A DNA stretch of 64,000 bases from Escherichia coli (lineage in GTDB: Bacteria > Pseudomonadota > Gammaproteobacteria > Enterobacterales > Enterobacteriaceae): NCBI RefSeq assembly GCF_050920415.1, contig NZ_CP169309.1. One strand, written 5' to 3'. This document shows, one piece after another, positions 2,171 through 21,771 of this stretch. Both the position numbers and the translations under genes were made by a program. Each line of letters starts with the position of its first letter. Positions within the stretch are counted from its first letter, which is position 1. The notes beneath the pieces were generated by a model that saw only the letters and a list, made by a program, of their open reading frames with translations, had not been told where the DNA came from and searched no databases.

Positions 2171-2638
2171 CTAGTTAATACACTGAGTGCGGATATATTC
2201 CTGCGCCCCTTCCAGCTGCTTCTGCATCATCATCAACCGCTCTCTGAGAGTGAAATAATCCCGTTCAACTGTGTCTGCCAGTCGGGGGCCGGTTGCATTA
2301 TCCACGCCGGAGGTGCCGGTGGCTTCACGCACGGTACCGGAGCAGGTGGCGTTGATCCGCAGGCGCTTACGACCAGCGGCAACATCAGCACGCAGAGTTT
2401 CATTTTCAGCTCTCGCATCGGCTAATTCCCTCGAGTATCTGGCATCAAGTGCAGCGACATCACGCTGGCGTATCTGCATATCAGTAATTGTCGCGTTCGC
2501 CAGCTCCAGCTCTCTGACTTTTTTATCGCGCTGCGCTTTGTAGGTGATGGCGTTATCGCGGTAATGATTCAGCCCCAGACCAAGCGCACCACAGGCTACC
2601 AGCAGGACAATAATCACCACACACAGAACACGGTTCAT
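2171..2638 (-). CDS. rz: Rz inner-membrane spanin (i-spanin)
   Basis: 155 aa with N-terminal TM segment and coiled-coil body ([58 protein letters not shown]); directly downstream of endolysin. Confidence 0.85.
2233..2418 (-). CDS. rz1: Rz1 outer-membrane lipoprotein spanin (o-spanin), embedded in the +1 frame of Rz
   Basis: 61 aa [61 protein letters not shown]: lipobox then proline-rich region, like lambda Rz1. Confidence 0.85.
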
Positions 2639-4102: not shown

Positions 4103-4743
4103 TTATATACGTCCTTTAAGATAAGTCAGTCCTGGATGAAACCAGTAAGCAGGCACTTTTTTAAAGGGTGGATTATCAAAATCACGAAGAAGAGCCTCCC
4201 GCACAACTGCATCCTTGTCCGCACCACTGGCCAGCGCTTCAATCTCAGCAGCTACCTGCAGATATCCCATGCAACGACCAATGCGCTTCATTAGTCCCTG
4301 CTTTTTATTGTTCTTCAGGTAATCAATGGCAAATTCAATGAGCGCCTCACTGTGCTGGTGCGATGCTGGTGTTACTTTTCCATCTTCACGGATCGTGATA
4401 TTCCAGTCATCGCTTGTCACAATAAAAGATGGCCGATTCCCCCCCCATGCCTGGTCTTTATCCGGTGCAGACGCAATAAAATAACGTTTATTGCCTTCCT
4501 CTCCGGCACTTTTAACTGTAATGGAGTACTTTTCTGACAATGCGGTCGGTAAAAACTTTTCCTGCAAAATCTTCTCAAAGGTCCTGCGAGCAATTTTGAT
4601 GCAATCATCGTAAAACGCTGCTTCCTGCTCATCGCGGCGTTTTTTTCATCTTCAGAAACCATCAGCACCGACAGTTTTTTATTCAGTTCAGTGATTTCAT
4701 TTTCCAGGCAACTTATGCGCTGATTCATTTCTTCATGGTTCAT
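4103..4743 (-). pseudogene. Hypothetical protein gene between holin and endolysin, interrupted by a frameshift (ORFs 4417-4743 and 4103-4567)
   Basis: N-terminal ORF (MNHEEMNQRISCLENEITELNKKLSVLMVSEDEK) and C-terminal ORF (...QEKFLPTALSEKYSITVKSAGEE...) join into one plausible protein if the A/T run at 4640-4646 had one more base (EDEKKRRDEQEAAFYDDCIKIARRTFEKILQEKF). Confidence 0.5.
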
Positions 4744-6379: not shown

Positions 6380-6460
6380 TGGACCGCCATCGAGGACTCG
6401 AACCCCGCACCAACAACCCTGTTATCGTGTCGTCTGCTCTTCCTGATGAGCTAATGGCGG
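6380..6460 (-). tRNA. Atypical tRNA-like gene (acceptor, D and T arms present; anticodon arm does not fold canonically; possibly degenerate)
   Basis: Minus strand CCGCCATTAGCTCATCAGGAAGAGCAGACGACACGATAACAGGGTTGTTGGTGCGGGGTTCGAGTCCTCGATGGCGGTCCA: acceptor pairing, GCTC/GAGC D stem, GTTCGAGTC T arm and CCA end, but 27 nt between D and T stems. Confidence 0.45.
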
Positions 6461-12072: not shown

Positions 12073-12395
12073 ACTTTCAGGCCCCTCTCATGTAACCAGT
12101 GGGTTGCACGCAGCCTGGCGTTTTCCTCACCGGCAAGCAGTGAGCGGATAATCCCGACCGCCTCGCTGTCGTCGTCCTTCATCGCAGTATGAAGCGTTAT
12201 CCCCCGGGCCACGCCACGCTTTATCGTGATGACGCCTTTTTTCTCCAGTGCGCGAAGATGCTCCACCGCTGCATTCACTGAACGGTATCCCAGCATGGTT
12301 GCCACCTCCTGATTGGTTGGCGGGAAGCCACGTTCTTTCTGATAAGAAATCAGCATATCCAGCACCTGCTGCTGGCATTGAGTTAACGTCGTCAT
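12069..12395 (-). CDS. LexA N-terminal-like winged-helix DNA-binding protein (no peptidase domain)
   Basis: MTTLTQCQQQVLDMLISYQKERGFPPTNQEVATMLGYRSVNAAVEHLRALEKKGVITIKRGVARGITL parallels the LexA N-terminal domain; ATG overlaps the upstream gene stop (ATGA). Confidence 0.75.
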   Translation of the reverse strand: MTTLTQCQQQVLDMLISYQKERGFPPTNQEVATMLGYRSVNAAVEHLRALEKKGVITIKRGVARGITLHTAMKDDDSEAVGIIRSLLAGEENARLRATHWLHERGLKV

Positions 12396-13044
12396 GCCGC
12401 CATCTCCCTGACCAGTTTTTCCGCCTGCTGGCGAACCTGCGCCAGAAACGCCTCACCACATGCCTCAAGTTCATCGCGCCCGATGTAGCTGATTGCCGGT
12501 CCCTTCCAGGTCTGTCGAAAACAGCAATAGCACCAGCGAAGAAAGCGCCTGTCGGCACCTGCTTCTCATCTTTCGGGATAAACCAGGCAGGCAGTTCAAA
12601 ACCAATACGCCCGCGAATAAAAGCAATATGATCTGCATCTTCCGGCCACCACACTTCGCTGGTGGCAGCTTTGATCAGGAAAACATAGCGCCCGCCTTTA
12701 TCACGCATGGCACTGGCATGTTTCATGATGTAACGCATGCCGGTGATGTATTGCCCCTCATGCTGACTGGCGCGGCTGTATGGGGGATTACCAAAGGCAG
12801 CACCTTTAAGCTCCGCAAGACGTTCTGACCAGTCATGCGCCAGCGCGTTGTCTTCCGCCGTGTAATACGCGGTACATTTGGCGTTATCACCGTCAGTAAA
12901 CAGATCCAGGACAAACGGGCCAAACAGGGTGTTAATTCCCCAGAAAATGTTACCCGGCGTGCGCCACTGATCGCCCACTTCCTTCAGTTCATGGGCTGGT
13001 TTGTTCCGCAGTTCCACCAGCGCCCGGCAATATTTATTACTCAT
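12392..13044 (-). pseudogene. Phage Dam-family N6-adenine DNA methyltransferase with a 1-nt frameshift near 12505-12522
   Basis: N-terminal frame: MSNKYCRALVEL...GAAFGNPPYS...FFAGAIAVFD. C-terminal frame: QTWKGPAISYIGRDELEACGEAFLAQVRQQAEKLVREMAA, ending in TGA overlapping the next ATG. One extra A in the A4 run (about 12518-12521) would join them. The 316-aa ORF-track read-through has an Arg-rich junk tail. Confidence 0.7.
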
Positions 13045-18956: not shown

Positions 18957-19781
18957 ATGTCTCAGAACTTAGACGCAACCGCAATTAATCAAATCCATGC
19001 CCTTATTTCTGCTCAGGGTGTTAATGAAATTATCAGTAAGATTGGTGCCGATGCTGTGGCATTGCCTGAGAATTTCCGCATTCATGATCTGGAAAAATTT
19101 AATTTAAATCGCTTCCGTTTCCGTGGTGCGCTTTCCACTGCCAGCATCGATGACTTTACCCGTTATTCTAAAGATCTTGCAGATGAAGGCACCCGCTGCT
19201 TTATCGATGCTGATAATATGCGTGCCGTCAGTGTGCTTAACCTGGGTACTATTGATGAACCAGGTCACGCAGATAACACCGCCACTCTCAAACTGAAAAA
19301 GACAGCACCGTTCTCTGCCCTGTTGTATGTTAACGGCGAGCGTAACTCCCAGAAGTCACTGGCAGAATGGATTGAAGACTGGGCCGACTATCTTGTGGGC
19401 TTTGATGCTAATGGTGACACCATTCAGGCAACAAAAGCGGCTGCGGCGGTCCGTAAAATCACGATTGAAGCAAACCAGACCGCTGATTTTGAAGATAATG
19501 ACTTCAGCGGCAAACGCTCCCTGATGGAGTCTGTCGAAGCGAAGACCAAAGACATTATGCCAGTGGCATTTGAATTTAAATGCGTTCCGTTTGAAGGTCT
19601 GAAAGAACGTCCGTTTAAATTACGCCTCAGCATTATCACTGGCGATCGTCCTGTACTGGTTCTGCGCATTATTCAGCTGGAAGCGGTGCAGGAAGATATG
19701 GCTAACGAATTTCGTGATCTGCTTGTTGAGAAATTCAAGGACAGCAAAGTAGAAACCTTTATTGGTACTTTCACCGCCTGA
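18957..19781 (+). CDS. YfdQ-like protein (DUF2303)
   Basis: 274-aa ORF with strong RBS; recalled as CPS-53 YfdQ-like. Confidence 0.75.
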
Positions 19782-19908
19782 TTTCATTACTGCAAATGCC
19801 CCTGCGGGGGCATTTATGGAAACGTAATTTACTCAATAATCGCCGGATGGTGAGGGATTCTTTTTACCAGAATTCAGCGCGGTGCAGCGCATATACGTGG
19901 AGAACAAA

Positions 19909-20445
19909 ATGTCATTTATCAAAACTTTTTCTGGGAAGCATTTTTATTATGACAGGATAAATAAAGACGACATCGATATTAACGATATCGCGGTTTCCCT
20001 TTCAAATATCTGTCGCTTTGCCGGTCATCTTTCGCACTTCTACAGCGTCGCCCAACATGCGGTTCTTTGCAGCCAGCTGGTGCCGCAGGAATTTGCTTTT
20101 GAAGCGTTAATGCATGATGCAACAGAAGCGTATTGCCAGGACATTCCCGCACCACTGAAACGCCTTCTTCCTGACTATAAACGGATGGAAGAAAAAATAG
20201 ACGCCGTAATCCGTGAGAAATACGGGTTACCCCCGGTTATGAGTACACCCGTGAAATATGCCGATCTCATCATGCTGGCAACCGAACGCCGCGATCTCGG
20301 GCTTGATGATGGCTCTTTCTGGCCTGTACTGGAAGGCATCCCGGCAACAGAGATGTTCAACGTGATTCCACTGGCACCGGGCCATGCCTACGGGATGTTT
20401 ATGGAACGTTTTAACGATTTATCGGAGTTACGCAAATGCGCATGA
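19909..20445 (+). CDS. YfdR-like HD-domain phosphohydrolase
   Basis: 178 aa from MSFIKTFSGKHFYYDR...; HD motif region HFYSVAQHAVLCS...LMHDATEAY. Confidence 0.75.
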   Translation: MSFIKTFSGKHFYYDRINKDDIDINDIAVSLSNICRFAGHLSHFYSVAQHAVLCSQLVPQEFAFEALMHDATEAYCQDIPAPLKRLLPDYKRMEEKIDAVIREKYGLPPVMSTPVKYADLIMLATERRDLGLDDGSFWPVLEGIPATEMFNVIPLAPGHAYGMFMERFNDLSELRKCA

Positions 20446-20798
20446 ATGTTTTCGAAATGGAAGGGTTTCTTCGCGGGAAATGTGTACCGCGAGATCTGAA
20501 AGTGAACGAAACAAATGCTGAGTACCTGGTACGTAAATTCGACGCGCTTGAAGCTAAATGTGCGGCACTGGAAAACAAAATAATACCAGTGTCAACTGAA
20601 CTGCCACCAGCAAATGAAAGTGTTCTGTTATTTGATGCTAATGGAGAAGGCTGGCTGATTGGCTGGCGTTCTCTCTGGTACACCTAGGGACAAAAAGAAA
20701 CCGGAGAATGGCAGTGGACATTTCAGGTCGGGGACCTTGAAAACGTCAATATCACTCACTGGGCAGTAGTGCCAAAAGCACCGGAGGCTGGAGCATAA
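20436..20798 (+). pseudogene. YfdS-like gene interrupted by an in-frame TAG at 20685-20687
   Basis: The frame continues after the TAG as GQKETGEWQWTFQVGDLENVNITHWAVVPKAPEAGA and ends at a TAA overlapping the next ATG (TAATG at 20796-20800); total length 120 codons. Confidence 0.5.
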
Positions 20799-21577
20799 TG
20801 ACCACATTTACCAATAAAGAACTGATTAAAGAAATCAAAGAACGAATCAGCAGCCTAGAGGTTCGAGACGATATTGAGCGCCGTGCTTATGAAATTGCTC
20901 TGGCATCGCTAGAAGAGGAGCCGGTGGCGTGGCTGCATTCAGAAAATGGCTTAGGTATTCCGGCAATAACGAGGAGTAAAAACATTGCTGACAGTTGGTT
21001 ATCAAAGGGCTGGTATGTTCAGCCGCTATATATAGCCAAGCCAGTGCCGGTAGTGCCAGATGCTCGTCCGTCTTTAAATAATGGCATAGTCGGTTTTGAT
21101 GAAGGCTGGAACGCCTGCCGCGCCGCCATGCTTCATGGTGCCGAACCTGTAAACCAAACTTACAAGTCACCACACACGCAGTTTGAACAAGTTGCTGACC
21201 TCTACGAAATGCAATTTGATGACGGTCGCACTTGTGCCTTTCACACTGATGCGCAAAAGGCTGCGCAATGGCTTCAGGTGTGCGACGGAAACAGGGTTCA
21301 GGAATACGTTAAGCTGGAACGGCTGCAGAACGCGCTGTCTGGCAACTCTCCGGTAAGTCCAGGTGGTTGGATAAGCTGTAGTGAGCGAATGCCGAATGAT
21401 AAACAGTATGTTTGGTGTTGGGGGAAGTCTTACGGCTGGACTGAGTGCGATACCTTCGAAGGGTATTACGATTGGTCGAGAAACAAATGGTGGGCAGTTA
21501 CTGACAATGAGGAAGAACAGGCATCGAAAGTAACCCACTGGATGCCACTACCGGAGCCGCCGCAGGAGGTGAAGTAA
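20798..21577 (+). CDS. Hypothetical protein with DUF551-like Trp-rich C-terminal region
   Basis: 259 aa; C-terminal WISCSERMPNDKQYVWCWGKSYGWTECDTFEGYYDWSRNKWWAVTDN...HWMPLPEPP pattern. Confidence 0.6.
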   Translation: MTTFTNKELIKEIKERISSLEVRDDIERRAYEIALASLEEEPVAWLHSENGLGIPAITRSKNIADSWLSKGWYVQPLYIAKPVPVVPDARPSLNNGIVGFDEGWNACRAAMLHGAEPVNQTYKSPHTQFEQVADLYEMQFDDGRTCAFHTDAQKAAQWLQVCDGNRVQEYVKLERLQNALSGNSPVSPGGWISCSERMPNDKQYVWCWGKSYGWTECDTFEGYYDWSRNKWWAVTDNEEEQASKVTHWMPLPEPPQEVK

Positions 21578-21771
21578 TGAACAACTTAATGACAACTAAA
21601 CAAGTCGCCGATTTCTGTGGTGTTTCAGTATCGACAGTTCTTCGCTGGAACAGCGTAAACAGGAGAACTGGTCAGAAATACAGGCCTGACTTTCCAGATC
21701 CTGATATTAAATCCTGCCCAAATAAATGGGCATCACACAAGATTTACAGATTTGCGGGAGTGATTGAGTAA
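21577..21771 (+). CDS. xis: Excisionase / AlpA-family HTH protein
   Basis: 64 aa with TTKQVADFCGVSVSTVLRWN motif; last gene of the pL operon next to int. Confidence 0.7.
   Translation: MNNLMTTKQVADFCGVSVSTVLRWNSVNRRTGQKYRPDFPDPDIKSCPNKWASHKIYRFAGVIE

Follow-up and report, generated by a model that had tools for sequence, protein, structure and literature searches.

A derived amber codon very probably inactivates the yfdS gene of an Escherichia coli prophage and may have arisen at a Dcm methylation site

We analyzed a stretch of Escherichia coli DNA of 64,000 nucleotides (hereafter, the window) in which the prophage gene yfdS is interrupted by an in-frame TAG. The account that we favor, at a probability of roughly 0.85, is that a derived change of Trp84 to TAG inactivates the prophage yfdS gene, and that this change likely came about through a deamination hotspot at a Dcm site. 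The original prediction had offered three readings of the TAG: a nonsense pseudogene, a sequencing error, or a gene that depends on amber suppression. The first of these is supported by the data presented below, whereas the second is unlikely and the third found no support.

Results

The reading frame of yfdS is interrupted at codon 84

The features of the yfdS locus in the window are as follows.

19909..20445, plus strand: yfdR, the upstream gene, a homologue of HD-domain 5'-deoxynucleotidases
20436..20798, plus strand: yfdS pseudogene, a 120-codon frame with an internal amber codon that ends at TAA 20796-20798 (from translation and identity to the TUM9975 gene)
20436-20438, plus strand: ATG start of yfdS, in a 10-nt overlap with the end of yfdR (TGA 20443-20445)
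20436..20687, plus strand: still-translatable yfdS open reading frame, 83 codons and TAG (from the ORF listing)
20685..20687, plus strand: amber codon W84*, in which the changed base, 20686, is A here and G in intact alleles
20688..20798, plus strand: 3' remainder of yfdS, cut off by the TAG, with 36 sense codons and TAA
20783..20793, plus strand: Shine-Dalgarno-like GGAGG (20783-20787) and GGAG (20790-20793), with a function presumed from sequence
20798..21577, plus strand: downstream 259-aa open reading frame with a C-terminal DUF551, whose ATG overlaps the natural yfdS stop

The sequence, the ORF listing and the translation all agreed that the open reading frame ends at the TAG at 20685-20687, as had been predicted. 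The same frame was also said to run on to a TAA overlapping the next ATG and to reach 120 codons, and this proved correct: the last A of the natural stop is the first base of the downstream ATG at 20798-20800 (TAATG), and the full frame of 120 codons plus stop equals intact yfdS in other strains (363 nt, 120 aa). The distance between the stops, originally given as 110 nt, was close enough; counted between the first letters of TAG and TAA, the exact spacing is 111 nt, and the intervening sequence measures 108 nt. An open run of 36 codons has a chance of about 0.18 ((61/64)^36), which by itself is not beyond chance. We therefore counted the frame past the TAG as real because of homology and not because of its openness, as the 363 nt match the intact yfdS of TUM9975 at every base but 20686. 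No in-frame ATG, GTG or TTG follows the TAG before codon 112 in the 3' part of yfdS, and the ATG at 20708 lies in another frame. Rescue of yfdS by a restart or a frameshift was rejected on these grounds, and the lack of an in-frame restart before codon 112 supports the assignment of yfdS as a pseudogene.

The prophage and its annotation

From position 1 to about 24,300, the window is a lambdoid prophage that adjoins yjjG, and core chromosome lies beyond it, as judged from the annotation of MFDS1022581 (NZ_CP169399.1). According to the same annotation, the prophage carries genes for packaging, lysis, the Q antiterminator, replication, ymfL/ymfT/ymfK immunity, yfdP-yfdQ-yfdR-yfdS and an integrase; yfdS is placed in the early-left accessory operon yfdP-yfdQ-yfdR-yfdS. 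The region 19800-21600 is common, being present in 3,842 of the 5,426 complete E. coli genomes searched by megablast, where it is annotated as yfdR, yfdS and a DUF551 protein.

MFDS1022581 matched the window base for base across 4.8 kb around yfdS, and over 50 kb the two differed by five SNPs and two 1-bp indels, indicating that they are very close yet distinct assemblies. On the identical DNA of MFDS1022581, PGAP annotated 20436-20798 as a pseudogene ('hypothetical protein, internal stop'). The nonsense pseudogene is thus an ordinary one, already flagged by public annotation of identical DNA.

PGAP also flagged frameshifts in the identical sister DNA of two other prophage genes, a hypothetical protein at 4103-4743 (minus strand) and a phage N6-adenine methyltransferase at 12392-13044 (minus strand). 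Having several inactivated genes, the prophage is probably decaying. The two 1-bp indels that separate the window from MFDS1022581 lie at about 1522 and at 2519-2525, one of them within a T-run. The T-run indel leaves a 155-aa spanin-like lysis open reading frame (2171-2638, minus strand) intact in the window and frameshifted in MFDS1022581; it could be a homopolymer assembly error in either genome or a true difference.

yfdS of the window belongs to the YfdS family

The window gene is 1 nt away from the allele that encodes WP_063815049.1, the 'YfdS family phage-associated protein' of TUM9975. The restored 120-aa protein was 93-98% identical to three aligned 120-aa homologues. Against the Pfam DUF551 model (PF04448), restored YfdS scored 20 bits, below the cut-off of 22, with E = 0.0013 over residues 50-117, and a search of NCBIfam with the restored protein gave no match. 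The neighborhood yfdP-yfdQ-yfdR-yfdS is kept, including the overlap of the yfdR stop with the yfdS start. The uninterrupted frame of about 120 codons that a functional member of the family needs is absent here, owing to the TAG at codon 84.

The closest known counterpart is found in CPS-53 (KpLE1), a cryptic prophage of E. coli K-12, whose yfdS encodes a 120-aa DUF551 protein of the same family and lies in the same neighborhood, yfdP-yfdQ-yfdR-yfdS. Unlike that gene, the window copy is broken at codon 84. The prophages differ as well: the element in the window is a different lambdoid element, located beside yjjG and not at the site of CPS-53 in K-12, and the gene downstream of yfdS is the 259-aa DUF551 open reading frame in the window but yfdT in CPS-53.

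Predicted consequences of the truncation

Translation of the window allele would end after 83 residues, within the C-terminal DUF551-like module. A structure model of restored YfdS had a mean pLDDT of 53.6, too low for a fold search, and we accordingly used only its outline of secondary structure, and that weakly. In this outline, residues 25-46 form a helix and six strands come after it, residue 84 being in the third, which suggests that the stop removes about half of the C-terminal module. In this model, the remaining 83-codon product would still contain the N-terminal helix and, of the DUF551-like module, about the first half, and background read-through would supply at most a trace of full-length YfdS.

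The downstream 259-aa open reading frame would lose its translational coupling to yfdS, but it has a ribosome-binding sequence of its own: the GGAGG and GGAG motifs sit 4-10 nt 5' of its ATG, so it can probably start without translation of yfdS. This open reading frame, a paralogue of yfdS, is intact at 20798-21577 (plus strand) and has a strong C-terminal match to DUF551 (E = 4.6e-17, 63 bits), although PGAP annotates two 'partial' pseudogene fragments on the identical DNA. The 206-aa homologues in other prophages lack about 160 bp of this open reading frame (21168-21327), suggesting that it is a variant produced by mosaicism or insertion and no obvious pseudogene.

In K-12, deletion of yfdS reduced survival of H2O2 (PMC3105296). 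Multicopy yfdQ-yfdR together with yfdS or yfdT inhibited DnaA-dependent initiation of replication, whereas deletion of yfdQRST left initiation unchanged (PMC4776307). From these published phenotypes, loss of yfdS is expected to be tolerated.

The TAG is a rare, derived state

Alignment showed that base 251 of yfdS (window 20686) is A in the window and G in TUM9975, changing TGG (Trp84) to TAG. This was the sole difference from TUM9975 between window positions 19698 and 23067, a span of 3.4 kb; the two prophages are 99.9% identical. The original prediction had proposed a comparison with homologues in other prophages, and this comparison bore it out. A 71-mer centered on codon 84 had exact matches to the TGG form in 1,091 records and to the TAG form in 5, among 5,426 complete E. 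coli genomes, and the alignment of diverse homologues had Trp, Phe or Met at position 84 in every sequence and never a stop. With TGG as the population norm and a sense residue in the homologues, the TAG is a rare derived nonsense mutation. It is therefore very probable that yfdS is here a real nonsense pseudogene.

The changed base lies at a predicted Dcm-methylated position

Two Dcm sites of yfdS enter into the argument.

20683..20687, both strands: former Dcm site, CCTGG in intact alleles and CCTAG here (from sequence context)
20525..20529, both strands: second yfdS Dcm site, an intact CCTGG, where a transition at a methylated position would leave the amino acid unchanged

Base 20686 pairs with the bottom-strand inner cytosine of CCTGG, which is the target of Dcm, and the change is a G:C-to-A:T transition. 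Among the 51 single-base nonsense changes possible in yfdS, only that at base 251 falls at a Dcm-methylated position. In CCWGG, the methylated base is a recognized hotspot of G:C-to-A:T change, and Vsr repair is active chiefly in stationary phase (PMC13250602; PMC3527292). Both dcm and vsr are annotated as intact in MFDS1022581, at a locus outside the window, and 5,358 of the 5,426 genomes have both genes. In the mechanism that we propose, Dcm would methylate the inner C of CCTGG, and the 5-methylcytosine would deaminate to thymine. The resulting T:G mismatch would be missed by very-short-patch (Vsr) repair, and replication would fix CCTGG as CCTAG. At such a hotspot position, the amber allele would have arisen repeatedly across prophages that carry yfdS.

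The distribution of the allele agrees with this expectation. The five complete genomes with the TAG represent three prophage contexts.

Context 1: window type
Context 2: ymfK-yfdR-yfdS type with another integrase, in three strains
Context 3: yfdT type, integrated at a tRNA-Thr gene beside proA

For context 2 and likewise for context 3, there is a TGG sister with only 3 differences in about 7,100 bases, base 251 of yfdS being one of them. In a larger collection the TAG was found on at least five yfdS haplotypes. From its presence on at least five yfdS backgrounds, recurrent mutation at a hotspot is a likely origin, with modest statistical support. The hotspot model also predicts C-to-T change at the methylated position of the top strand, and for this reason we searched for the 71-mer with the synonymous change of ACC to ACT. 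An exact match was found in 4 records, on at least two backgrounds. Control G:C-to-A:T variants within 10 nt (W81 TAG, W84 TGA, Q86 TAA and Y82 TAT) had no full-length exact match each.

The classical precedent is lacI, in which Coulondre and Miller in 1978 reportedly found amber hotspots at the CCAGG sequences of Dcm sites. As in lacI, a G:C-to-A:T change at the methylated C of CCWGG gives TAG in yfdS, and it recurs on independent backgrounds. In the classical lacI cases, it is the methylated strand itself that shows CAG turned into TAG; in yfdS, unlike lacI, the methylated C is on the template strand, so that the coding strand reads TGG to TAG. Furthermore, the lacI hotspots came from a selection experiment, whereas yfdS was observed in natural isolates and with modest enrichment.

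Other nonsense alleles of yfdS limit the hotspot model

An exact look-up of truncated proteins returned many matches that were 'partial', cut by contig ends, and DNA was fetched to sort out true internal stops. A search of 5.8 billion proteins returned a mixture of mosaic and partial proteins and yielded no clean spectrum of truncation lengths. On the common A54 haplotype, true internal nonsense alleles at W73, W77, W81, Q86, W92 and Q93 each occurred on about one background, and the W84 TAG on 2-3. In the larger collection, the W84 TAG was thus only about 2- to 3-fold above other nonsense sites, on one haplotype and with nanopore artefacts possible. Because nanopore basecallers make errors at Dcm motifs, some of the TAG or ACT calls in complete genomes could be artefacts, and on the PRO_A-1462 background the TAG is supported by its own assembly alone. 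In the loci fetched, the methylated positions of the second Dcm site, at 20525-20529, were without variants.

Stops other than TAG also occur at codon 84 in other prophages (loci L015, L016, L076 and L077), TGA being on two backgrounds. The TGA and TAA alleles need a G-to-A change at position 252, which is paired with the unmethylated outer cytosine; the TAA allele (L016) carries the change at 251 too. These alleles are not explained by the Dcm model alone. One metagenome scaffold had TAA at codon 84 with three G-to-A changes in a TGGGGA run.

Some apparent truncations were of another kind. The 'truncated' yfdS of L031 and L108 ends at recombination or deletion junctions, with full divergence after the stop, and is not the product of point mutation; these junctions show the mosaic nature of the yfdS module. 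L077, a gut-metagenome MEGAHIT contig that had been considered as short-read support for the S47/A54 TAG allele, was rejected because its DNA reads TGA.

In view of the other nonsense sites, the TGA and TAA alleles, the unvaried second Dcm site and the possible artefacts, we consider an origin of the TAG by deamination at the Dcm site, with methylation predicted from the motif, to be somewhat better than an even bet.

Discussion

The recurrence of the TAG could have another cause than a mutational hotspot. If the TAG arose once and spread among prophages by short-tract homologous recombination, the count of haplotypes would be uninformative on the hotspot. Prophages are mosaic, with clear recombination junctions near yfdS, and one haplotype (L023), which is identical to the window before nt 310 but not after it, looks recombinant. 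However, haplotype-specific SNPs flank the TAG within 112 nt or less on several backgrounds, for example at nt 222 and at nt 292 or 334, so that transfer would need very short tracts. Furthermore, for each of three backgrounds a TGG sister exists with almost no other difference in 3.4-7 kb. We consider spread by recombination to be unlikely.

Repeated stops at codon 84 might also reflect selection, alone or together with a hotspot, because loss of the gene is beneficial or because the 83-residue fragment is active. TAG, TGA and TAA alleles at this codon are found across several backgrounds, the TAG lineage of the window type is present in many assemblies, and the inhibition of initiation by multicopy yfdQRS or yfdQRT (PMC4776307) offers a conceivable advantage. 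Against this, the nonsense and the synonymous product of the same Dcm site were about equally frequent (5 vs 4 records), which fits near-neutral loss, and nonsense alleles are spread over many other yfdS codons. Moreover, the lowered H2O2 survival of the yfdS deletion (PMC3105296) is no obvious benefit, and initiation was unchanged in the yfdQRST deletion (PMC4776307). The 5 vs 4 records suggest that loss of yfdS is near neutral and, together with the scattered stops, argue against strong selection for truncation. We regard an origin by selection as quite improbable. A specific version, in which codon 84 is repeatedly truncated because loss of half of DUF551 or the 83-residue fragment benefits the lysogen, with the Dcm site serving as a high-rate off switch, is more doubtful still. 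If it were true, the possible gain would be relief from a YfdQRS-type restraint on DnaA-dependent replication initiation.

There is very little chance that the true base at 20686 is G and that the A is a consensus error, possibly a systematic nanopore miscall at a methylated CCWGG. Positions 20683-20687 form a Dcm motif, a context in which nanopore basecallers make systematic errors and consensus errors cluster (Wick et al. 2019, PMC6591954). The change resembles those errors in being a substitution within CCTGG and in occurring in genomes that are often nanopore-assembled, and the homopolymer-type indels between the window and MFDS1022581 indicate long-read noise in at least one of the two. 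Unlike such errors, however, the TAG allele recurs in fragmented drafts and in Logan assemblies. MFDS1022581, a distinct complete genome, has it, and four NCBI drafts and three Logan assemblies of public runs contain the same prophage with the same TAG, at 0-1 SNP over 2.9-6.3 kb; the draft assemblies with the TAG are fragmented as short-read data are. The five SNPs that separate the window from MFDS1022581 all fall outside Dcm motifs, and 20686 is the only Dcm-site difference between the window and TUM9975. Exact protein look-up found the 83-aa product recorded on more than 20 contigs, complete genomes among them, as well as for E. coli M863 (EGB60835.1), an entry whose accession series is older than nanopore sequencing. 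A sequencing error is therefore unlikely.

The weakest alternative is that yfdS remains functional through amber suppression or programmed UAG read-through, giving regulated low-level expression or full expression in a suppressor host, and we consider it very unlikely. Beyond the TAG, the frame has kept all 36 sense codons and its natural coupled stop, but a young mutation predicts the same equally well. The TAG is moreover a rare derived state in a population whose norm is TGG, and the stop is not conserved, the homologues having a sense codon at position 84. The lone in-frame UAG with an intact frame beyond recalls laboratory phage amber mutants on supE or supF hosts. Those mutants were made and kept in suppressor strains, whereas no suppressor was found here among the loci examined, and yfdS, unlike the genes concerned there, is a dispensable accessory gene of a resident prophage.

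ARAGORN found no CUA anticodon among the tRNAs of the window, which number five: Arg-UCU, one with a CAU anticodon and three Leu-CAG. The classical suppressor loci of MFDS1022581 are wild type (glnV/glnX CUG, tyrT/tyrV GUA and serU CGA), and its prfA is annotated as intact. The supE allele had 155 exact records, and all among the 60 matches listed appear, judging by strain names, to be K-12 laboratory strains or derivatives. As the supE search lists 60 of the 155 records, the strain was judged through glnV/X, tyrT/V and serU of MFDS1022581. Amber suppression, as it had been proposed for this gene, is left without support by these loci.

None of the 60 supE (glnV CUA) records listed has an annotated feature where the suppressor tRNA gene lies, and RefSeq apparently omits this tRNA there. 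A PGAP 'tRNA-OTHER' feature at 6380-6460 (minus strand), which lies between tRNA-Arg(UCU) and the CAU-anticodon tRNA in the late region of the prophage, was considered as a phage-borne suppressor and rejected, for it has no 7-nt anticodon loop and no CTA. Neither ARAGORN nor the Rfam tRNA model detected it. Acceptor, D and T arms are present in its fold, whereas the place of the anticodon arm is taken by a 7-bp stem with a 3-nt loop; it is probably a degenerate tRNA gene.

Taken alone, the inactivation of yfdS has little importance, being a correctly spotted pseudogene in a decaying prophage. For annotation, yfdS of this prophage should be marked as a pseudogene, with neither a recoding nor a suppression note, and substitutions at CCWGG in long-read assemblies need short-read confirmation. 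The finding has modest value as a natural illustration, in which the same amber allele is seen at the Dcm-methylated position in unrelated prophages. Its recurrence fits the textbook hotspot of 5-methylcytosine deamination and suggests that yfdS is under weak selection in lysogens.
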